Shown piece by piece: positions 1-26,982 of a stretch of 64,000 nucleotides of DNA (position 1 is its first letter; each line of letters begins with the position of its first letter). A model generated the notes under the pieces. The model saw nothing but the letters and a program-made list of their open reading frames with translations, made no database searches and was not told the origin of the DNA. The position numbers were made by a program, and so were the translations under genes. Source of the stretch: Pseudomonadota bacterium (lineage in GTDB: Bacteria > Pseudomonadota > Gammaproteobacteria > SURF-13). The stretch covers positions 7,686 to 71,685 of the forward strand of contig JBGFRC010000001.1 of NCBI GenBank assembly GCA_041695325.1, written 5' to 3'.

Positions 1-522
1 CTCCAGGTCCAGACATAATCCAGCCAGCTCCAGACGGTGAAAATGAGCGCCAGATAAATCAAACCGCTGATACTCCACTCCGGCAACGGCAGGAGGCTTA
101 GCTTGAGCATCACGGCCAGCACCAGGGTGATCTGCAACACGGTATTGACCTTGCTGATCCGGGTCGGCGCCAGATCAAAAGGGTGGACGGTGTAATGGTA
201 AACCAGCGCGCCGCCGACGATCATCACATCGCGCCCCAGCACCACCGCCACCAGCCAGGCCGGCAACAGGCCGAGCCATGCCAGGGCAATGTAAGCGGAG
301 ACCAGCAATATTTTGTCGGCCAGCGGGTCAAGGATCGAACCCAGGCGGCTCTTCCAGCCGTAACGCTTGGCCAGATAGCCATCGAGGGCGTCGCTCAGGC
401 CCGCCACGCCGAACAGCAGCAGCGCGGTAAAATAGCGTCCATCCGTCAACGCCATGATGAAGGGCGGCACCAGTACGATGCGCACTAGGCTGATAACATT
501 GGGAAGGTTGTTTTTACCCATG
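1..522 (-). CDS. pgsA: CDP-diacylglycerol--glycerol-3-phosphate 3-phosphatidyltransferase; partial, 3' end beyond left window edge
   Basis: Reverse-strand translation from the ATG at 522 gives MGKNNLPNVISLVRIVLVPPFIMALTDGRYF...DALDGYLAKRYG, a CDP-alcohol phosphatidyltransferase signature. The frame is open to position 1. Confidence 0.75.
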
Positions 523-639
523 AACACTCCCGCATTTTAGCAGGGTTTAGGCGTGTGCAGCGCGGGGCTTATAAAGTTGTTTTTTATTTGCAGTCCCTGC
601 GCCAGCCCGATAACATAAACGCCTTCTACAACGTATACC

Positions 640-2348: not shown

Positions 2349-4349
<2,001 letters not shown>

Positions 4350-5754: not shown

Positions 5755-6636
5755 TCACGGCTTGCCTTTCCCGTACTGGTCCTTGAAGTATTTAAAGAAC
5801 TCCGAATCGGGGTCTATCACCAGCACGTCGCTCTTGTCGCGGAAGGTGTTTTTATATGCGTTCAGGCTGCGATACAGCGAGTAGAATTCCGCGTCGCTGC
5901 TGAAGGCCCTGGCGTAAATGTTCGCCGCCTGCGCATCGCCTTCGCCGCGGATGCGCTCCGCGTCGCGGTAAGCCTCGGCGATGATCACCGTGCGCTGGCG
6001 GTCGGCGTCGGCCCGGATGAGCTCGGCCGCCTCCGCGCCGCGGGCGCGGAACTCGCGCGCCGCGCGCGCGCGTTCCGCGCGCATGCGGTCATACACCGAG
6101 CTGCTCACCTCCTTGGGCAAATCCACGCGGCGCAGGCGCACGTCCACCACTTCGATGCCCAATTCCCTGGCCTGCTCGGTAGCCTCCCGCTTTACGATAT
6201 CTATAAGTTGCGCGCGGTCACCGGACACCACGTCCTGCAGGGTGCGCTTGGCGAATTCGCCGCGCAGGCCCTTTTTGATGATCTGGAACAGGTTGGCCCC
6301 GGCGCGCGCCGGATCGCCGCCGGTGGCGGTGTAGAAGCGCGCCACGTCCACGATGCGCCACTTGACGTAGGAGTCCACCAGCACGCTCTTCTTCTCCACC
6401 GTGAGATAGTCCTCCGGCTCGGCGTCCAGCGTCTGGATGCGCGCGTCGAATTTGCGCACGTTATAAAGTATCGGCACCATGGCATAGAGGCCCGGTTTGA
6501 AATCGGTGCGCACGATCTCGCCCAGGCGGAACAGGATGGCGCGCTCGCGCTGATGCACGGTGAATAACGAGGCATAGGCCAGGATCAGCGCCCCGACCAC
6601 GGCGATAATGGTCCACATCTTCTGGTTTTCGCTCAT
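5755..6636 (-). CDS. hflC: protease modulator HflC
   Basis: SPFH/band-7 protein MSENQKMWTIIAVVGALILAY...; follows hflK. Confidence 0.95.
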   Translation of the reverse strand: MSENQKMWTIIAVVGALILAYASLFTVHQRERAILFRLGEIVRTDFKPGLYAMVPILYNVRKFDARIQTLDAEPEDYLTVEKKSVLVDSYVKWRIVDVARFYTATGGDPARAGANLFQIIKKGLRGEFAKRTLQDVVSGDRAQLIDIVKREATEQARELGIEVVDVRLRRVDLPKEVSSSVYDRMRAERARAAREFRARGAEAAELIRADADRQRTVIIAEAYRDAERIRGEGDAQAANIYARAFSSDAEFYSLYRSLNAYKNTFRDKSDVLVIDPDSEFFKYFKDQYGKGKP

Positions 6637-7851: not shown

Positions 7852-9051
7852 TTATGAAACCGCGGCCGGCTGATGATCTTCAAGCCCGGTCATTTCACGT
7901 TCATAGTAGCTTGCAGTGCGTTGTCCGGCTGCGTGCTCGGCCAGCGCCAGGCGCAGCAGGTCCAGTCCCGCGCCGCTTGCGGCGGAGACCCAGACCCGCT
8001 TTATGCTTCCGTCACGGTTACGCTCCAGACGCGGAGCGCTATTTTCCAGCAGATCAATCTTGTTGTACACCTCAATCTGGGGAACGGCCTGTGCGCCGAT
8101 CTCGTGCAGCACCTGATTGACTTGTTCGCGGCGCTCCTGATGCCGGGGGTCGCCGGCGTCCATCACGTGCAGCAGCAGGCTCGCCAGGCGCGTTTCTTCC
8201 AGCGTGGCGCGAAACGCCGCCACCAGGTCATGCGGCAGATCGCGGATGAAGCCCACGGTGTCGGCGAGAATCACGGGCGCGTCGCCCGGCAGCTCAACGC
8301 GGCGCAGCGTAGGGTCGAGGGTGGCGAATAATTGATCGGCAGCGTACACCCTGGCCCCGGTGAGGGCGTTAAACAGGGTGGATTTGCCGGCATTGGTGTA
8401 ACCCACCAGCGACACCGTGGGCAGCGCGGCCTTGCCACGCCGCTTGCGGCCCTGCGCGCGTTGCTGCTGTACCTTGTGCAGGCGTTTCTGCACTTGTTTG
8501 ATGCGCTCGGCGATCTGGCGCCGGTCGCTTTCAAGCTGGGTTTCACCGGGGCCGCCGCGCAGGCCGATACCGCCCTTTTGCCGCTCCAAGTGGGCCCAGC
8601 CGCGCACCAGCCGCGTCGAGATGTGCTGTAGCTGGGCAAGCTCCACTTGCAGTTTCCCTTCGTGGGTCCGGGCGCGGCGAGCAAAGATGTCCAGTATCAG
8701 TCCGGTGCGATCCAGCACGCGGCAATTGAGCAGGCGCTGCAGGTTGCGTTCCTGGGACGGACTCAGCTCGTGATTGAACACCGCCACCGCCGCCTGCTCA
8801 CGCGCGACTGCATCGCGTATTTCCTCGGCCTTGCCGCTGCCGGCGTAGTATTGCGGATCGGGTTTCTTGCGCGTCCCGCCGATTGAGGCCACCGGGACGA
8901 CGCCCGCCGAACGCGCCAGTTCATGCAATTCGGCGAGCTCGGCGGCGTGGTCCCGCGCCCCGTTCAAGCCGGGCCCTGCTCCGTGCAGGTCGAGATGCAC
9001 CAGCACCGCCCGTTCCGCCTTCAGCGGGCGGCCACGCGCACGGTCAAACAA
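7852..9051 (-). CDS. hflX: GTPase HflX
   Basis: G-domain motifs GYTNAGKSTLFNALT and DTVGF; downstream of hfq. Confidence 0.95.
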   Translation of the reverse strand: MFDRARGRPLKAERAVLVHLDLHGAGPGLNGARDHAAELAELHELARSAGVVPVASIGGTRKKPDPQYYAGSGKAEEIRDAVAREQAAVAVFNHELSPSQERNLQRLLNCRVLDRTGLILDIFARRARTHEGKLQVELAQLQHISTRLVRGWAHLERQKGGIGLRGGPGETQLESDRRQIAERIKQVQKRLHKVQQQRAQGRKRRGKAALPTVSLVGYTNAGKSTLFNALTGARVYAADQLFATLDPTLRRVELPGDAPVILADTVGFIRDLPHDLVAAFRATLEETRLASLLLHVMDAGDPRHQERREQVNQVLHEIGAQAVPQIEVYNKIDLLENSAPRLERNRDGSIKRVWVSAASGAGLDLLRLALAEHAAGQRTASYYEREMTGLEDHQPAAVS

Positions 9052-18519: not shown

Positions 18520-20220
18520 ATGCGCACCTCACAGCTATTACTGCCCACACTCAAGGAAACACCCTCCGACGCCGAAGTCATCAGTCATCAGTTGATGCTG
18601 CGTGCGGGCATGATCCGCAAACTCGCCGCTGGCATCTATAACTGGCTGCCCCTCGGCCTGCGCGTGCTGCGCAAGGTGGAGGCCGTTGTGCGCGAGGAAA
18701 TGAGCCGCGCCGGCGCGCAAGAGCTGCTGATGCCCGCGGTGCAGCCCGCCGAGCTGTGGCAGGAATCCGGGCGCTGGGGGCAATACGGCCCTGAACTGTT
18801 GCGCCTGCAAGACCGTCACCAACGCGACTTCTGCTTCGGCCCGACGCACGAGGAGGTCATCACCGATCTGGTGCGCAACGAAATCCGCAGTTATAAACAA
18901 CTGCCTGCGATCTTTTACCAGATCCAAACCAAATTCCGCGACGAACCGCGCCCGCGGTTCGGCGTGATGCGCGCGCGCGAATTCCTGATGAAGGATGCGT
19001 ATTCATTTCACGCTGATAAAGCCAGCCTGGAAAAAACCTATCAGGTGATGCATGACGTCTATACCCGCATCTTCACCCGTCTTGGGTTAAGATTCCGCGC
19101 CGTGTACGCCGACACCGGCGCCATCGGCGGCACCGGTTCGCAGGAGTTCCACGTGCTCGCCGACTCCGGCGAAGACGCCGTCGCGTTTTGCCCGGATTCG
19201 GACTACGCCGCCAACGTGGAACTAGCCGAGGCCGTCGCGCCCGCGGGCAAGCGCCCTGCCCCACAACAGACGATGCAAATCGTGGACACGCCGGGCAAAC
19301 ACAGCATCGAAGAAGTCAGCGGCTTTTTAAAAATGGATCCCGCCCAGTGTCTGAAGACGCTGCTGGTGCAGGGCAAGGAAGGCGTCGTCGCGCTGGTGTT
19401 GCGCGGCGATCACGAATTGAACACGGTAAAAGCGGCCAAGCTGACGCAGGTTTTCGCCCCGCTGACACTGGCCACCCCGCAGCAGGTTCAGGACGCGGCC
19501 GGCTGCGCGCCGGGATCGGTGGGCCCGGTGGGGCTAAAGATTCCCGTCATCGCCGACCGCGCCGCCGCGCACGCAAGCGACTTTGTGTGCGGCGCAAATC
19601 AGGACGGCAGGCATTTCACCGGCGTCAACTGGAGCCGCGATCTGCCGGAGCCGCTGGTCGCGGACATCCGCAACGTCGTGCAAGGCGACCCTTCCCCCGA
19701 CGGCCAAGGCACGCTGTCCATCGCGCGCGGCATCGAGGTCGGCCACATTTTCCAGCTTGGCGGTAAATACTCCAGCGCCATGGGCGCGAGCTATCTCGAC
19801 GAAAACGGGCAATCGCAAATCATGGAGATGGGCTGCTACGGCATCGGCGTATCGCGCGTGGTGGCCGCCGCCATCGAACAGAACCACGACGCACGCGGTA
19901 TCATCTGGCCTGTGCCCCTTGCGCCGTTTCACGTCGCGCTGCTGCCGATGAACATGCACAAGTCGCCGCGCGTGCAGGAAACGGCGGAGAAACTCTATAC
20001 AGAATTAACACACGCCGGGATTGAGGTGTTATTCGATGATCGCCCCTTGCGCGCGGGCGTGATGTTCGCCGACATGGAGCTGATCGGCATCCCCCATCGC
20101 ATCGTCGTCGGCGAACGCGGCCTCGACGCCGGAACGGTGGAATATCAGAACCGTCGCGACGCGCAAAGCCGGAATGTACCGCTTGCTGAAATCACCGGCC
20201 TTCTGAAAGCGCGCTTATAA
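18520..20220 (+). CDS. proS: proline--tRNA ligase
   Basis: 566-aa class II aaRS with an editing domain and full-length ProRS similarity. Confidence 0.95.
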
Positions 20221-20532
20221 GCCGCTCTCCCTCCAGTCGGCCAGAAACTGCTCCAGGCCGAGGGTAGTGAGCGGGAGCCTGACCGTCACATTGGGCGCAA
20301 TCCTGGCCAGTTCGCGGCCCTGCTTGAGCATGCCTTCATAATCCATCGCAACGACCTCGGCGCTGACCGGGCCTTGCACCATCTCGCAGATCATCGCAAT
20401 CTGCTTATGAAAGCTGATACCGGTTTCCTTGGCTAGCAGCGATGGATTGGTGGTCACACCGTCGGCCATGCCCAACTCCACGGCTTTGCGTATATCCTCA
20501 AGATGTCCCGTGTCTATGGGGTAGCCATCCAA
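20215..20532 (-). pseudogene. internally deleted, start-less copy of the transaldolase/fructose-6-phosphate aldolase gene (paralog of 26240-26890)
   Basis: Its translation matches residues ~5-77 of the intact copy fused directly to the last 16 residues (…VRLPLT|[16 protein letters not shown]). The junction lies at the microhomology cccgctcac. There is no ATG at the 5' end, where the sequence diverges from the intact gene. Confidence 0.8.
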
Positions 20533-20574
20533 ACATCATGCCCAATCTCTGAAGGAGGTCATATGCCGAAGAAC

Positions 20575-20625
20575 CAAGCCTGGCACTGGTTTTCGGGAAA
20601 TTAACGCTCACAACTACCCACACGA
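20575..20625. repeat. 50-bp junction motif, copy 1 (ttcgggaaattaacgctcacaactacccacacgacttccagaagagcc)
   Basis: Near-identical to 26080-26130. Both copies lie between a tal-derived segment and IS630-like remnant sequence. Confidence 0.6.
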
Positions 20626-20673
20626 CTTCCAGAAGAGCCCCAAAATCTATATTCGCGCATTTTTGAGGATCAT

Positions 20674-21327
20674 TCAGCGCGCCGCCGCCCGGGAGAACAA
20701 TCTTCGCCCGAATGCGCCGCCGAATGCGGCGAGCACGGCCGCCGGGCCGAGGTTCCAAATCAGGATCAGCGTGGTCGCGTCCAGGTCATGAAAAAGCGAC
20801 AGCGCCGTTGCGGTCATGGCGGCGACGGCGAGGCCGCCCGTGATCGCGACCGGCGCCGGCGCGAGCAACGCCGCGTGGCGCAGCATGATGAGCAGCGCGA
20901 GCGAGAGCGGCGCGCCAACGAGCACGAGCGTCGCGAAGCAGCGCGCGGTCTCGCCGAGCGACACGCCCTCGGGCCCGATGCTGACCCAGGCGGTGAAACA
21001 GCCGTAGCCGATGGTCGCCACCCATACGAGGAGCCCGGGCGCAGGCAGAAGGAGCCAGCCTCGCGAGCGGTCGGGGAGGCTCAGGAGGAACGCGGCAATC
21101 GCGGCAAGGACGCCGGTCGCGAGCGCCGCGGCGACGCTGAGAACGAATACCGGCTGCTCGAGGCGAAACTCCAGGTCCGGGCGCACTCCGCGCGAGACGG
21201 CCAGCAGCGCGAGGATCAGCGCCGCGAAGAGCAGCCAGCCGGCGGCGCGCACGAGCGGCGGCCGCAGGCGCCGCAGCGGCGCCAGATGCGCGACAAGTGT
21301 CTCGATCAGGTCGGGCGTATTGATCAC
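20674..21327 (-). CDS. DUF1109 (NrsF-family) membrane anti-sigma factor
   Basis: 217 aa, six predicted TM segments, N-terminus INTPDLIETLVAHLAPLRRL, two cysteines in predicted outward-facing loops (GYGCFTAW, ARCF). ATGA-coupled to the upstream ECF sigma gene. Confidence 0.8.
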   Translation of the reverse strand: MINTPDLIETLVAHLAPLRRLRPPLVRAAGWLLFAALILALLAVSRGVRPDLEFRLEQPVFVLSVAAALATGVLAAIAAFLLSLPDRSRGWLLLPAPGLLVWVATIGYGCFTAWVSIGPEGVSLGETARCFATLVLVGAPLSLALLIMLRHAALLAPAPVAITGGLAVAAMTATALSLFHDLDATTLILIWNLGPAAVLAAFGGAFGRRLFSRAAAR

Positions 21328-21947
21328 CGGTCCGTTCGTTTCGTTCCGAGCAGTTTCCGCAGGCGCTTCAACGCGCGATGCGTAGCCACCTTGAGCGCCG
21401 CGACCGACATGCCGCTCGCCGCAGCCGCTTCCTGCAACGACATCTCCTTCAGCTTGAGAAGCTCGATCGCCTGGCGCTGTCCGGCGGGCAGATTCTCGAC
21501 CGCCTCCCGCAGCAGGCGCGCCTCGGAGGCCGCCTCCTGGCAGTTCGCCTCGGGCCCGGCAAAGGTTTCATGCTCGGGTTCGAGCGGCACCTCGCGGGCC
21601 CCCGCGCGTCCGTGCCGGCGCAGCGCATCCGCGATGCGCCGATTGGCGATCGCGACCAGCCACGGGCCGAAGGGGCGGGCAGGGTCGTAGGTATTGCGTA
21701 CTGCATGCACGGTGAGCAGCGTCTCCTGCACCACGTCCTCGACGTCGCTGCGGTTCCGCAGGCGCCGCGCCGCAAGCGAGCGCAGGTAAGGCGTCACCTG
21801 TTCGAGCAGCCGCCGGTAGGCTTCGCGGTCGCCGCCCTGCGCCCGCGCCATGCAGAGCGACCAGTCGAGTTCATGGCCGGCAGGCGCCTCCCCGGCCTTC
21901 CTGATGAGGCTCAGCGCCGGTCCGCGGCCGGGTCGGTTGGATCGCAT
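21324..21947 (-). CDS. ECF-type RNA polymerase sigma-70 factor (SigF-like)
   Basis: Sigma-70 region 2 (DVVQETLLTVHAVRNTYDPARPFGPWLVAIANRR) and region 4 (LPAGQRQAIELLKLKEMSLQEAAAASGMSVAALKVATHRALKRLR). Start ambiguous: 21947 (MRSN...) or 21851 (MARAQ...). Confidence 0.85.
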   Translation of the reverse strand: MRSNRPGRGPALSLIRKAGEAPAGHELDWSLCMARAQGGDREAYRRLLEQVTPYLRSLAARRLRNRSDVEDVVQETLLTVHAVRNTYDPARPFGPWLVAIANRRIADALRRHGRAGAREVPLEPEHETFAGPEANCQEAASEARLLREAVENLPAGQRQAIELLKLKEMSLQEAAAASGMSVAALKVATHRALKRLRKLLGTKRTDR

Positions 21948-22515: not shown

Positions 22516-23370
22516 ATGAGCGCAGTCGCGGTTTCAGGCAGCGGCCCGCAGGGACTCGGGCCGGGGATCGGGCTGCGCGCGCCGCACTATCGCGCTTTCC
22601 TCGAGGCGCGCCAGCCTGTTGGCTGGGTCGAGGTCCACAGCGAGAACTACTTCGGGCAGGGCGGCTACCACCGGCACGTGCTCGAACGCGTGCGCGCCGA
22701 TTACGCCGTCAGCCTGCACGGGGTCGGGCTCGGCATCGGCTCCGCGGAGGGCTACCGCGAGCGCCACCTGAGGCGGCTGCGCTCGCTCGCGCGGTGGATC
22801 GAGCCGGTTTTCGTCTCCGAGCACTTGTGCTGGGGGGCGGCGTCCGGCCGGCACTTCAACGACCTGCTGCCGCTCGCCTACGGCCGGGAGGCGCTTGCAC
22901 TAGTGAGCGCGCGCGTCGAGCGCGCGCAGGAACTCCTCGGCCGGCGCCTGCTGATCGAGAACGTCACGGCGTATCTCGAGTTCGCCGGGCAGGAGATGGC
23001 CGAGGCCGAATTCATCGCCGAACTCGCGCACCGCACGGGCTGCGGCGTGCTGCTCGACGTGAACAACCTGTACGTGAATCAGCTTAACCACGGCGGCGAT
23101 GCGCTCGCTGCCCTGCGCACGCTCCCCGCGGGCTGCGTCGAGGAGATCCACCTTGCCGGCCATCTGGTCACCGAGGACTGCGTGATTGACCACCACGGCG
23201 CTCGCGTCGCCGAGCCCGTGTGGCGGCTCTACAAGGCCGCCCTCGAGCGCTTCGGTCCGGTCCCGACGCTGATCGAATGGGATACCGACATCCCGGAGCT
23301 TGCGGTGCTGCTCGATGAGGCCGCGCGCGCCGGCCGGTGCATGGGGGAACGCCTTGGCCTCGCTGCTTGA
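22516..23370 (+). CDS. DUF692 / MNIO-family (multinuclear non-heme iron oxidative) enzyme (BufB-like)
   Basis: 284 aa, TIM-barrel DUF692 signature ...VEVHSENYF..., [14 protein letters not shown]. Immediately follows the precursor gene. Confidence 0.85.
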
Positions 23371-24139
23371 GTTGCAGCGCGGCTTCGGGTCCGCGCTCGC
23401 CGACGCCGCGGGCGCAGCGCGCTCGGCCGCGCTTTTCCGCGGTCCGCCCGAGCGCGCGCTCGCGCGCCTCGCCGTGTATCGCGGCAACGTCTTCGGCAAC
23501 TGTTCGAAAGCGCTCGCCGGCGCGTATCCGATCGTTCGCAAGATCGTGGGCGAGGAATTCTTCGAGGACCTCTCACGCGCCTACTGGCGCTCGCGGCCTT
23601 CGGTGAGCGGCGACCTGAACGAGTACGGCCGCGGCTTCGATGCGTTCCTCGCAGGCTGCGCGCAGGTGCAGGACCTGCCGTATCTGCCGGACGTCGCGCA
23701 CATGGAGTGGCTCGCGCACCGCGCCTACTACGCCGCGGACAGCGCGCGCTTCGATCCCTCGCGCCTTGCGGCGCTGCCGCCGGAGCGCCATCCGGGCCTG
23801 CGCCCGGTGCTCGCCCGCGCCTGCGCGCTGTTCGAGTCGCACTGGCCGCTGGCACGGATCTGGGAGGTACACCAGGACGACTACACGGGCGAGATCAACG
23901 TTGATCTCGGCGCGGGCGGCGAGCGCATACTGGTGCACCGCCCGGCCTGGCGCGCCGTGGTCATCGGGCTCGGCGCCGCGGACCATGCGCTGCTCTGCGC
24001 CATCCGCGACGGCCTAGCGCTGGGGCCAGCGCTCGAGGCGGCGCTCGCCGCCGATCCCGCCTACGGCCCGTCTGCAGCGCTCGCGCGCTGGGTCGGCGCC
24101 GGCGCGATCGTGGCTCTTGCCGCGGGAGAGCCGCGATGA
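23315..24139 (+). CDS. DUF2063 domain protein (BufC-like MNIO partner)
   Basis: N-terminus ...[17 protein letters not shown] typical of DUF2063; overlaps the MNIO gene 3' end. Start approximate (first in-frame ATG). Confidence 0.8.
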
Positions 24140-24594
24140 GGGCGATCGGCGCATGGCTTCCGGCGATCGAGCGCGTGCTCGCCTGGTTGCAGGCGGCCGG
24201 CCATCTGGTCGATCTGGCGATCCGACTCTACGTCGCGAACGTGTTCTTCAAATCGGGCCTGGTCAAGATCGGCAACTGGGACGGCACCCTGTATCTGTTT
24301 CACGAGGAATACCGGGTGCCGCTGCTCCCGCCCGAGGTCGCGGCCTGGCTCGGCACGTTCGGGGAGCTCTTTTTCCCGCCGCTGCTCGCGCTCGGGCTCG
24401 CCGCCCGCTTCGCCGCGCTTTCGCTCTCCGTGTTCAACGTAGTGGCGGTAATCTCCTTCTGGCACGTGCTCAGCACCAACGAGGCGGCGCTGATGTCGCA
24501 CTTTTACTGGGGCTTGCTGCTGCTCGTTCCGCTGTGCCACGGCCCGGGCAAGCTCTCGCTCGATCACTGGATCTGGCGCTGGGTTTCCCGCTAG
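24136..24594 (+). CDS. DoxX family membrane protein
   Basis: 152 aa, four TM helices, DoxX signature; ATGA overlap with the DUF2063 gene. Confidence 0.8.
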   Translation: MRAIGAWLPAIERVLAWLQAAGHLVDLAIRLYVANVFFKSGLVKIGNWDGTLYLFHEEYRVPLLPPEVAAWLGTFGELFFPPLLALGLAARFAALSLSVFNVVAVISFWHVLSTNEAALMSHFYWGLLLLVPLCHGPGKLSLDHWIWRWVSR

Positions 24595-24624
24595 GCACGA
24601 GGAGCGAAGAGTGGACGCTTCGCC

Positions 24625-25740
24625 ATGAACCTGCGCAGCCTTGCGCTGGCGGCGGCGCTCGCGCTCGCCCCGGGTACGGTGCTCGCGCAGAGCGCGGAGG
24701 ACAGGCGCGAGTGGCCGCGGACCGATTTTTCGCGCCGCACGGTGGACCTCGCCGAGATCGAATCGGGCGGGCCGCCCAAGGACGGCATTCCGGCGATCGA
24801 CCGCCCGAGGTTCGTGGGCGCGCGCGCCGCGCGCACCTGGCTCAAGGCGAAAGAGCCGGTGATCGTGCTGCGCCTCGGGGGCGAGGCCCGTGCCTACCCG
24901 CTCCAGATCCTGATGTTCCACGAGATCGTGAACGACATGGTCGGCGGTGTGCCGGTCGCGGTCACGTTCTGCCCGCTATGCAACGCCTCGATCGTGTTCG
25001 AGCGCCGGGTCGGCGAGCGCGTGCTCGACTTCGGCACCACAGGGCGGCTCCGGCTCTCCGACCTCGTGATGTACGACCGGCAGACCGAATCCTGGTGGCA
25101 GCAGTTCACCGGCAAGGGGATCGTCGGGCACTATGCGGGAACTGAACTCGTGCGCTTGCCCTCGGAGATCGTCGCCTTCGAGGACTTCTCCGCCGCGCAT
25201 CCGATGGGGCTGGTGCTCTCGCGCGAGACGGGTCATGCGCGCCCGTACGGGCGCAACCCCTACGCGGGCTACGACCGGATCGACCGGAGCCCGTTGCTGT
25301 TCTCCTCGAGGCTGGACCCGCGGCTGCCGCCGATGGAGCGGGTGCTCTCGGTCACCGTGGGCGCAAAGCACCGGCTCTATCCGCTCACGCTGCTGGAAAA
25401 GCATCCCGTCACGAACCGGGAGCTGGAGGGCCTGTCCTACGCCGTGTTCGCCAAGCGCGGCATGGCCTCGCCGCTCGACCGCCCGGAGATCGAGCAGGGG
25501 CGGCCGATTCCGGCGGCGACCGCGTTCGCGCGGCGTCTCGAGGGCCGGACGCTCGAATTTGTCTCCCGCGGCGGCCGCTATTTCGACACGGCGACCGATT
25601 CCGAGTGGAACCTGCTCGGCGAGGCCGTGGCCGGGCCGCTAAAGGGCAAGCGCCTCGCCCCGCTCGAGAGCGGCGTTCACTTCGCCTTCGCCTGGCTCGC
25701 GTTCAACCCGGAAAGCGAGATCGTGCGCAGCCTGCCTTAG
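24625..25740 (+). CDS. secreted DUF3179 domain-containing protein
   Basis: Signal peptide MNLRSLALAAALALAPGTVLA then ...GIPAIDRPRFV...AYPLQILMFHEIVND...FCPLCNASIVFERR. 30 nt downstream of doxX, same strand. Confidence 0.7.
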   Translation: MNLRSLALAAALALAPGTVLAQSAEDRREWPRTDFSRRTVDLAEIESGGPPKDGIPAIDRPRFVGARAARTWLKAKEPVIVLRLGGEARAYPLQILMFHEIVNDMVGGVPVAVTFCPLCNASIVFERRVGERVLDFGTTGRLRLSDLVMYDRQTESWWQQFTGKGIVGHYAGTELVRLPSEIVAFEDFSAAHPMGLVLSRETGHARPYGRNPYAGYDRIDRSPLLFSSRLDPRLPPMERVLSVTVGAKHRLYPLTLLEKHPVTNRELEGLSYAVFAKRGMASPLDRPEIEQGRPIPAATAFARRLEGRTLEFVSRGGRYFDTATDSEWNLLGEAVAGPLKGKRLAPLESGVHFAFAWLAFNPESEIVRSLP

Positions 25741-25773: not shown

Positions 25774-26075
25774 TCACGCCGCAAGAGGCAAAGGCGAGGG
25801 CTCGGCCGCGAACTTTCTGAGCAGCCGCGTGAGATCATCGCGCGTGAATCGCCAGTCAAACGGCGTGGCCATGCTCTCCAAGTGGTCCTGGAAGCGCAGC
25901 AATCGATCTGCGACCTCCGAAAGGCAGGAGAAGTCGTTGGGGGTAAGCGCCTTGCGCTGGACGATGGAGAAATAGATCTCGATCTGGTTGAGCCAATTGG
26001 TGTGAACCGGACCGTGAACGAGGACCAAGTTCGGGTAGGCCTGGGTCAGGCGTCGCACGCAGGGCTGGCCGCCTG
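25774..26075 (-). mobile_element. IS630-family transposase gene remnant (C-terminal ~100 codons only)
   Basis: Translation ...NLVLVHGPVHTNWLNQIEIYFSIVQRKALTPNDFSCLSEVADRLLRFQDHLESMATPFDWRFTRDDL matches the C-terminus of DDE_3/IS630 transposases. The frame is closed by a stop immediately upstream, so the N-terminal ~240 codons are missing. Confidence 0.7.
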
Positions 26076-26079
26076 GCGC

Positions 26080-26130
26080 GTGTTTCCGGGAAATTAACGC
26101 TCAAAACTACCCACACGACTTCCAGAAGAG
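26080..26130. repeat. 50-bp junction motif, copy 2
   Basis: ttccgggaaattaacgctcaaaactacccacacgacttccagaagagcc. It is followed at 26137-26215 by a second copy of the tal 5' region, including ATGAAATTT and then a stop. Confidence 0.6.
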
Positions 26131-26239
26131 CCTAAGAAATTTCATCACCACCTCCTGCCTTCAGGCATGACACCGTCAAGTTTCATGCCCAAAGCCAAAT
26201 GATGTTAGAATTTCGCGTTCGTTATGTATAAAAGCATGC

Positions 26240-26890
26240 TTATAAGCCGCTCTTCTTCCAGTCGGCCAGGAACTGCTCCAGGCCGAGGGTGGTGAGCGGG
26301 TGTTGGTACATCTGCTCCAGCACCTTGAACGGCAGGGTGGTGACGTGCGCGCCGATGCGCGCGGCTTCGATTACGTGGGTGACGTGGCGGATAGAGGCCA
26401 CCAGCACCTGTGTCTTCCATTCGTAATTGCGGTAAATGTCCACGATTTCCCCGATGAGCTTCATGCCGTGCTCGCCGACGTCATCCATTCTGCCCACAAA
26501 GGGTGACACAAACGCCGCTCCCGCCTTGGCGGCGAGGATGGCCTGCGCGGCGGAAAAGCACAAGGTGGCGTTGACCATCACACCCTCCTTGCTCAACACC
26601 GAGCAGGCGCGCATGCCGTCAGGCGTGAGCGGGAGTTTGACCGCGACGTTGGGCGCGATTTTGGCCAGCTCGCGGCCTTGTTTCAACATCCCCTCGTAAT
26701 CCGTTGCCACCACTTCAGCGCTGACCGGGCCTTGCACCATCTCGCAGATCATCGCAATCTGCTTATGAAAGCTGATACCGGTTTCCTTGGCTAGCAGCGA
26801 TGGATTGGTGGTCACACCGTCAGCCATGCCCAGTTCCACGGCCTTGCGAATATCCTCCAGATGTCCCGTGTCTATAAAAAATTTCATCAC
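26240..26890 (-). CDS. fructose-6-phosphate aldolase / transaldolase (TalC/Fsa subfamily)
   Basis: 216 aa MMKFFIDTGHLEDIRKAVELGMADGVTTNPSLL..., the short transaldolase family. Intact paralog of the pseudogene at 20215-20532. Confidence 0.9.
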   Translation of the reverse strand: MMKFFIDTGHLEDIRKAVELGMADGVTTNPSLLAKETGISFHKQIAMICEMVQGPVSAEVVATDYEGMLKQGRELAKIAPNVAVKLPLTPDGMRACSVLSKEGVMVNATLCFSAAQAILAAKAGAAFVSPFVGRMDDVGEHGMKLIGEIVDIYRNYEWKTQVLVASIRHVTHVIEAARIGAHVTTLPFKVLEQMYQHPLTTLGLEQFLADWKKSGL

Positions 26891-26982
26891 CGCCCCCTGC
26901 CTCCAGGCGTTACACAGTCAAGCTTCATGCTTAAAGCCAAATGATGTTAGAATTCCGCGTTTGTCAGCGCCATGGAGTATGC

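Follow-up and report, generated by a model that had tools for sequence, protein, structure and literature searches.

A predicted exported DUF3179 protein as an optional, lineage-restricted addition to a bufferin 1 operon

Bufferins serve in copper defence, in a system that was recognised only recently and is very widespread. The closest described systems to the locus treated here are the bufferin 1 biosynthetic gene cluster of Caulobacter vibrioides, where bufA1B1C1D1 are accompanied by sigF and nrsF, and the gig operon of Cupriavidus and Legionella. The bufferin is modified in the cytoplasm, where BufB and BufC suffice and DoxX is dispensable, and its disulfide is believed to arise in the periplasm once the peptide has been exported, DoxX having no assigned role (PMC11626156). 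Genes beyond the four core genes accompany bufferin clusters in extremely low proportions (Antoine et al. 2025, PMC12452194). Here we describe such a gene, for a DUF3179 protein of 371 residues, in a 64,000-nt stretch of a contig from a Pseudomonadota bacterium (JBGFRC010000001.1, positions 7,686 to 71,685, assembly GCA_041695325.1; hereafter the window). It is most likely the fifth gene of a bufABCD (bufferin 1) operon controlled by sigmaF and NrsF, and we lean slightly towards a reading in which its product would be a facultative periplasmic CxxC protein, co-induced with the bufferin by a stress sigma factor and acting on thiol or soft-metal chemistry.

A DUF3179 gene behind the bufferin core genes

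The core genes and their order are identical in the window and in the Caulobacter cluster, and the gig operon has the same gene set and order. Genes for a DUF2282 precursor, an MNIO enzyme, a DUF2063 protein and a DoxX-family protein, the last a weak match to NCBIfam HvfX (58 bits, cutoff 80), lie in one orientation, overlapping or less than 12 nt apart (Table 1). As in Caulobacter, a divergent extracytoplasmic function (ECF) sigma factor gene with an NrsF gene is present, and an exact sigmaF motif stands upstream of the precursor gene. The window differs from both described systems in adding a fifth gene, for a predicted exported protein, after doxX, on an acquired island. This gene follows doxX by 30 nt on the same strand, as a first-pass annotation of this DNA had noted and the open reading frame (ORF) coordinates bear out, and its product matches Pfam PF11376 over the entire profile (positions 1-292 of 292; 330.8 bits, cutoff 27).

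The sigmaF motif, GTAACC-N16-CGAA, was defined experimentally in Caulobacter (PMC3511200). It has a single exact match in the window, upstream of bufA, and is kept at the equivalent position in the related locus L001; by the Caulobacter consensus, this would place the unit in a sigmaF/NrsF regulon. Since no internal sigmaF-type promoter was found before DUF3179 in the window or its relatives, the simplest reading is that the bufA promoter also drives DUF3179. The first-pass annotation had seen no promoter-like sequence between doxX and DUF3179, and our consensus scan likewise found neither a sigma-70-like promoter nor a terminator-like site in this gap, with little power given that the region has 3 such sites against a shuffled mean of 4.9. 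The nearest terminator-like hairpin (24484-24499) lies within the doxX coding sequence. Furthermore, doxX and DUF3179 share a 4-nt stop/start overlap (ATGA) in the related locus L128, and in L117 the DUF3179 start precedes the doxX stop by about 19 nt. Taken with the 30-nt gap and the lone sigmaF motif, these overlaps make the earlier proposal of doxX-DUF3179 co-transcription plausible, and with it co-transcription from bufA onwards.

A one-mismatch sigmaF-like sequence, GAAACC-N16-CGAA, lies on the minus strand inside the sigma factor gene (21544-21569), about 220 nt upstream of nrsF, and L001 has kept it (6716-6691); an internal promoter and plain conservation of the coding sequence would each explain it.

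The predicted exported protein and its cysteine pair

The N-terminus of the window protein, MNLRSLALAAALALAPGTVLA followed by QS after the predicted cleavage site, has a basic n-region, a hydrophobic core (Kyte-Doolittle 15-mer values up to 1.95) and a V-x-A cleavage motif. The signal peptide called at first pass thus appears genuine, and the protein is predicted to be exported by the Sec route and to be extracytoplasmic. Among 91 diverse family representatives with a complete N-terminus, 84 have a hydrophobic stretch ahead of the domain at the N-terminus, and a lipobox-like motif occurs in 27.

The only two cysteines of the window protein, C116 and C119, lie in the FCPLCN motif, whose conservation had been claimed from the single sequence and holds across the family, with the CxxC kept in 141 of 150 diverse representatives. 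The motif is part of a longer signature, H-E-x-x-N-D ... T-(F/Y)-C-P-L-C-N, which is complete in the window protein (H99, E100, N103, D104, T114, F115, C116, P117, L118, C119 and N120). Apart from position 115, which is F or Y in 145, its positions are each conserved in 127-147 of the 150 representatives, including H99 in 146, E100 in 144, N103 in 145, D104 in 141, C116 in 145 and C119 in 142.

The structure prediction suggested at first pass gave a confident model (AlphaFold2, pLDDT 95.7, pTM 0.91), computed from an alignment of 47 diverse representatives and superseding one from 30 close homologues (pLDDT 73.7). The model describes an all-beta protein of about 350 residues, in which the H99/CxxC region would sit on a subdomain with a Rieske-like (iron-sulfur protein) beta fold. 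Fold searches returned Rieske-like matches only, and for the whole model Foldseek found no match in the Protein Data Bank (PDB) at E<=1e-3. A profile search of PDB sequences and an NCBIfam search gave no match either, and Pfam Rieske (PF00355) did not match the subdomain even at E<=10. The protein carries a CxxC motif (C116-P-L-C119) of the kind found at the active sites of the thioredoxin-fold oxidoreductases DsbA, TlpA and ResA, on a fold that is not that of thioredoxin.

The spacing His99-x16-Cys116-x-x-Cys119 equals that of the Rieske motif CxH-x16-CxxH, and the two may match in register, without confirmation from profile comparison, for which the sampled loci yielded only one genuine Rieske ORF. 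The window residues at the ligand positions are M97-F-H99 ... C116-P-L-C119. A Rieske [2Fe-2S] cluster is excluded, because position 97, where the first Cys ligand would stand, is occupied by I, T, M or L and is never Cys in common variants, and because a Cys takes the place of the last His. A mononuclear metal site or a redox dithiol is plausible at this His/CxxC site.

Selenocysteine forms of DUF3179 (UxxC/T) are catalogued in prokaryotic selenoproteome surveys, which give no function for the family and no link to MNIO systems (PMC9312934, PMC13188914), and many relatives are annotated as '(seleno)protein'. In addition, of ten long family members, five join DUF3179 to thioredoxin-fold modules: DsbD_TM+Redoxin+DUF3179, Redoxin+DUF3179 (twice), DUF3179+AhpC-TSA/Trx and DUF3179+DsbA-like. 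Taken together, the fusions, the selenocysteine forms, the conservation and the N-terminal hydrophobic segments point to an extracytoplasmic Cys pair that would be redox-active or bind metal through thiolates, and would exchange electrons with thioredoxin-like partners.

Distribution of DUF3179 beside bufferin operons

An exhaustive search yielded 10,664 DUF3179 cluster representatives (clusters at 50% identity, E<=1e-3). Among 7,997 scored homologues, the best 120 are 74-100% identical to the window protein and come mostly from metagenome-assembled genomes (MAGs) of Burkholderiales and Betaproteobacteria. We defined a close clade by at least 75% identity, comprising ten distinct genomes, all Burkholderiales MAGs. 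A buf operon lies within 10 kb of DUF3179 in five of these ten, in three architectures. The window (with its identical contig L009) and L001 have nrsF-sigma divergent from bufABCD-DUF3179, with an extra small ORF in L001; L002 has bufDCBA divergent from sigma-sigma-DUF3379-DUF3179; and L004 has bufABCD-sigma-sigma-DUF3379-DUF3179 on a single strand. In L003 the operon is 8.4 kb away from DUF3179. No buf gene was found within 10 kb in L008, L171, L172, L173 and L174, and half of the closest relatives occupy other metal- or thiol-stress settings. An ECF sigma or anti-sigma factor gene is found within 10 kb in eight of the ten genomes.

The neighbouring BufB proteins are only 54-68% identical to that of the window, as against 77-81% for the DUF3179 proteins, and therefore the linkage is not simple inherited synteny. 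Indeed, buf-linked and unlinked genes are interleaved in a rough neighbour-joining tree of DUF3179. By a rough estimate, a single-copy gene would fall within 7-10 kb of buf by chance in less than 1% of genomes. Together with four loci recovered from the buf side (L117, L127, L128 and a scar in L113, below), the five close-clade genomes establish a lineage-specific linkage. The first-pass annotation had allowed that DUF3179 might never co-occur with MNIO loci elsewhere; it does so in several genomes and three gene orders.

A second ECF-type promoter sequence, TGTAAGGAAC-N14-GTCTTA, occurs in L004 upstream of both bufA and the sigma-sigma-DUF3379-DUF3179 unit (5781-5810 and 8307-8336). The motif was found 12 times in 2.08 Mb, where a rough estimate would predict about 0.25 sites, and is also present upstream of bufA in L102 (1444-1473) and L103 (6585-6614), of a sigma gene in L008 (3810-3839) and of a DUF6969 cluster in L171 (5936-5965). 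This indicates a regulon with a DUF3379-type anti-sigma factor for bufferin operons, distinct from that of sigmaF/NrsF, as far as promoter sequences can tell. Since the promoter motifs are shared, buf and DUF3179 are predicted outputs of one sigma factor with either type of regulator.

For the reverse relation we took 80 metagenomic loci in which BufB shares 54-75% identity with that of the window; about 27 of them extend far enough downstream of the operon for a judgement. DUF3179 is, or formerly was, present in about four of these 27 (~15%) and is missing from about 85%. In L128 a DUF3179 gene (77% identity) directly follows doxX, and in L127 sigma-sigma-DUF3379-DUF3179 is divergent from buf. 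L117 carries after doxX a member of a different DUF3179 subfamily (3006-3680), with a YCTLCG motif and an N-terminal extension of about 110 residues. In many relatives of this subfamily the annotation reads '(seleno)protein, partial' and the length is no more than about 190-300 residues, which fits a UGA (selenocysteine) codon read as a stop; the two nearest relatives with genomic context do not lie beside buf. L113 retains a deletion scar of DUF3179, its last 23 codons (8947-9015; 83% identical to residues 346-368) fused behind doxX. In line with these proportions, DUF3179 is unmentioned in the supplements of Antoine et al. and of the preprint of Dommaraju et al., whose Table S1 of co-occurrence has no entries below 8.4% and does not list the family. 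Our literature searches on DUF3179, PF11376, DUF3379 and DUF6969 found no functional study, and no link of DUF3179 to MNIO or bufferin systems appeared in the literature searched. DUF3179 is thus not a conserved component across bufferin clusters: of the accessory role proposed at first pass, a recurrent, lineage-specific linkage stands, and that of a general component does not.

Beyond the close clade, tblastn and profile hidden Markov models (HMMs, built from 50-90 buf proteins) found no MNIO, DUF2063 or NrsF gene within 10 kb in any of 80 distant DUF3179 loci (GTDB species genomes of many phyla, 47-76% identity). The gene-neighbourhood survey that had been proposed as a check therefore shows recurrence beside buf in the close clade and none at these distant loci. 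The same models gave only one weak DoxX-like and one weak BufA-like match, the latter a stand-alone DUF2282 ORF (E=1e-4) in an Acidobacteriota MAG (L052, ~370-600, plus strand), about 9.6 kb from DUF3179 in a locus without an MNIO gene. ECF sigma factor genes occur in 10 of the 80 loci (Acidobacteriota, Chloroflexota and Betaproteobacteria). When the ORFs around DUF3179 were clustered across loci and annotated with Pfam, ECF sigma factors appeared in 15 loci, Acidobacteriota and Chloroflexota among them, and a DUF3379 anti-sigma gene directly upstream of DUF3179 in six. The other recurrent neighbours were CcdA/DsbD-like membrane proteins (10 loci) and Thioredoxin_3, CMD/AhpD and pyridine-nucleotide disulfide oxidoreductases (5 loci each). 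In the close clade, gene calls near DUF3179 include DsbD_TM, a 780-residue thioredoxin-domain (Thioredox_DsbH) protein and an FGE-sulfatase, as well as the metal genes MerR/T/P/A/B, CopD, Cus and a multicopper oxidase. Plasmid copies are all distant (<60% identity) and lie beside chromate, heavy-metal, thioredoxin and arsenite-oxidase genes, including chrA, a heavy-metal ATPase, a thioredoxin-domain protein and a GDCCVxC selenoprotein; no buf gene was found next to them.

The buf-DUF3179 module of the window occupies an island of about 5.4 kb that was acquired horizontally. The G+C content of the nrsF-sigF-bufABCD-DUF3179 segment is 69-72%, against 56-62% in the flanks, and the segment is bracketed by 62-nt direct repeats whose 45-nt core has no further copy in the window. 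A truncated, internally deleted transaldolase duplicate (20215-20532) faces a full copy on the other side (26240-26890), and a segment spanning the transaldolase upstream region and the icd start is duplicated (26133-26222 and 26875-26964). The border features as a whole span 20206-20639 and 25774-26964. The equivalent seven-gene module, with 82-96% protein identity, lies between unrelated genes in L001, and the module, DUF3179 included, therefore moves as a unit. No tRNA or Rfam element was found in the window.

Three further neighbours of DUF3179 were observed. A DUF6969-type cluster is found near DUF3179 in four genomes (L008 3847-8885, L172 2625-7567, L174 2065-6265 and L171 6034-9347), in the order (sigma)-DUF3379, ~220-aa protein, ~80-90-aa protein, DUF6969, ~150-aa protein, DUF302, Sulf_transp, frequently with GGDEF/EAL next in line; the cluster might represent a further stress system, based on small proteins or related to sulfur. 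A Peptidase_C92-like (YiiX-type) gene occurs near DUF3179 in the Betaproteobacteria loci L003, L174, L172, L016 and L017: with a 4-nt stop/start overlap in L174 (9231-10004), about 40-60 nt downstream in L016 and L017, as a truncated copy in L172, and about 2 kb upstream in L003, where a GGDEF/EAL gene lies between. The small ORF between doxX and DUF3179 in L001 (9648-10004) encodes a secreted protein of about 118 residues with a signal peptide and a CQLKPRGC motif, and it has no Pfam or NCBIfam match. Its type recurs near DUF3179 or buf in six more loci (L174 11186-11518, L172 1587-1844, L171, L097, L110 and L118) and is absent from the window.

Table 1. Features of the bufferin-DUF3179 locus (window coordinates)
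Feature	Position	Strand	Remarks
62-nt direct repeat flanking the island, left copy	20578..20639	+	Repeat family D5, 92% identity
nrsF-type anti-sigma factor (DUF1109/NrsF)	20674..21327	-	PF06532 E=2.6e-28; 4-nt overlap with sigma gene
ECF sigma factor, sigmaF-like, divergent from bufA	21324..21947	-	Sigma70_r2 + Sigma70_r4_2; longest ORF reaches 22076, start at 21947 follows the 207-aa gene call in L009
sigmaF-type promoter motif GTAACC-N16-CGAA	22137..22162	+	46 nt 5' of bufA ATG
bufA1, DUF2282 bufferin precursor, 98 aa	22209..22505	+	PF10048 E=1.6e-21
bufB, MNIO (DUF692) enzyme	22516..23370	+	PF05114 E=9e-102
bufC, DUF2063 partner protein, 261 aa	23354..24139	+	PF09836 E=7e-22; start per L009 gene call
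bufD, DoxX-family membrane protein	24136..24594	+	PF07681 E=5.9e-16
doxX-DUF3179 spacer, 30 nt	24595..24624	+	No promoter-like or terminator-like site found (low-power scan)
DUF3179 gene, 371 aa	24625..25740	+	ATG start; PF11376 E=1e-98
Predicted Sec-type signal peptide, aa 1-21	24625..24687	+	Predicted cleavage VLA/QS; sequence reading and hydropathy
Putative redox or metal site	24919..24984	+	His99 (24919-24921) and Cys116-Pro-Leu-Cys119 (24970-24981); conservation
FCPLCN motif, aa 115-120	24967-24984	+	Sequence
IS630-family transposase C-terminal remnant	25774..26058	-	Directly downstream of DUF3179; NF033545 positions 245-298/299, E=1e-4
62-nt direct repeat flanking the island, right copy	26071..26132	+	Repeat family D5

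Candidate roles and comparison with known systems

DUF3179 is an optional, lineage-restricted add-on and not a core bufferin gene. In the reading towards which we lean, copper or a similar stress would release the sigma factor, and DUF3179 would be made together with the bufferin. The exported protein would then act in the periplasm, after bufferin export, its His/CxxC site either cycling between dithiol and disulfide or binding soft metals through thiolates, and candidate tasks would be the handling of the bufferin disulfide, the handling of Cu(I) thiolates and the repair of metal-damaged envelope thiols. More broadly, DUF3179 in the Burkholderiales clade would belong to envelope metal- and thiol-stress regulons under ECF sigma factors (sigmaF/NrsF or sigma/DUF3379), of which the bufferin operon would be a further output, and in other lineages it would be wired to the CcdA/DsbD-thioredoxin electron pathway by fusion or adjacency. 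The identity of the gene, its place in the operon, its recurrent but minority linkage to buf, the fold, the conservation of the motif and the fusions are observed; co-transcription, a redox or metal activity and the substrate in vivo are what we infer. Several points weigh against this reading. The close-clade sample is small, ten related MAGs, and the linkage frequencies are rough; an internal promoter of another type may precede DUF3179; the CxxC could be structural; and the presence of two DUF3179 subfamilies right after doxX hints at a tie that goes beyond co-regulation.

This last point leads to the possibility that DUF3179 is a dedicated partner of the exported bufferin, perhaps as a redox pair with DoxX, which would form or isomerise the Cys(I)-Cys(IV) disulfide, keep the thiooxazole sulfurs reduced or pass on Cu(I). 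DUF3179 genes within the operon always follow doxX (in the window, L001, L128, L117 and the L113 scar), the position has been taken by members of both subfamilies, and the periplasmic disulfide and the unassigned role of DoxX would leave room for such a partner (PMC11626156). We nevertheless consider it unlikely, as the characterised bufferin systems work without DUF3179 and DoxX is dispensable in them (PMC11626156), most of the close buf loci lack the gene and one has deleted it, half of the closest relatives are in non-buf settings, the closest relatives of the L117 subfamily lie away from buf, and the 80 distant loci have no buf genes and a single weak DoxX-like match. In a narrower and distinctly improbable form, DoxX and DUF3179 would be a quinone-linked periplasmic thiol relay for the exported bufferin alone, analogous to DsbB/DsbA or CcdA/ResA but without a thioredoxin fold, which would set the Cys(I)-Cys(IV) disulfide or protect and recycle the Cu-binding thiooxazole sulfurs. 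If true, it would give DoxX in bufferin systems and the DUF3179 family a first biochemical role.

Alternatively, DUF3179 might stand beside buf for the sole reason that mobile metal-stress islands carry both, and the two would then be unconnected in function and regulation. The high-GC island with its flanking repeats and IS630 remnant agrees with this, as do the gene-dense, rearranged surroundings of close relatives, rich in mer, cop, cus and thiol-redox genes, and the origin of all linked cases from related Burkholderiales MAGs. However, the linkage persists across three architectures in spite of the BufB divergence, DUF3179 overlaps doxX or the anti-sigma gene in a translationally coupled arrangement, the two L004 units have a common promoter motif, and a second DUF3179 subfamily was recruited to the position after doxX, all of which makes pure hitch-hiking improbable.

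It is very improbable that DUF3179 is a periplasmic co-sensor that, by analogy with CnrX, would bind metal or sense thiol oxidation, modulate the anti-sigma factor and thereby regulate bufferin expression. The sigma-(sigma)-DUF3379-DUF3179 units of L002, L004 and L127, with 4-nt anti-sigma/DUF3179 overlaps, the DUF3379 gene directly upstream of DUF3179 in L016 and the conserved His/Cys site speak for it. However, only one of 13 buf-adjacent sigma-DUF3379 modules with downstream room carries DUF3179, which is therefore dispensable to the anti-sigma factor; the anti-sigma factor of the window is NrsF, with DUF3179 at the distal end of the output operon; and the protein has no homology to known sensors, its fold matches being Rieske-like only. 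Finally, we reject DUF3179 as an MNIO maturation factor, the peptide-maturation role that the first-pass annotation had entertained and that is unlikely, because the protein is predicted to be exported and the modification is a cytoplasmic step needing only BufB and BufC (PMC11626156).

For the bufferin field the impact is modest, DUF3179 being optional and confined to one lineage; through its repeated coupling to doxX or an anti-sigma gene it is nevertheless a concrete candidate for post-export bufferin chemistry. For the large DUF3179 family, the analysis offers a first framing, that of a predicted extracytoplasmic protein with a His/CxxC site on a degenerate Rieske scaffold, with fusions to thioredoxin-fold and DsbD modules and ECF sigma control.

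Among known systems, the window protein may be compared with the extracytoplasmic thiol-disulfide relays DsbA/DsbB and CcdA/DsbD-TlpA/ResA-Sco, with which it has predicted Sec export and a CxxC in common. Its family is fused or adjacent to DsbD_TM, Redoxin/AhpC-TSA, DsbA-like and Thioredoxin_3 modules, and the window gene itself adjoins that of DoxX, a membrane protein of a quinone-associated type; it differs in bearing the CxxC on a Rieske-like subdomain in place of a thioredoxin fold, and its redox role is putative. From the Rieske protein it differs in the missing first Cys, in Cys for the last His and in the lack of a PF00355 match. The DUF3179 selenoproteins are of the same Pfam family and have the motif at the same position, where the window protein has Cys and not selenocysteine at residue 116. 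Some DUF3179 relatives resemble CnrYXH in the order of sigma factor, membrane anti-sigma factor and exported His/Cys protein, encoded by overlapping genes, but there is no homology, most sigma-DUF3379 modules lack DUF3179, and the window gene is in the output operon, not that of the regulators. Compared with the bufferin 1 cluster and the gig operon, the window locus represents a genuine variant of a known gene cluster, one that is in the minority and restricted to a lineage.

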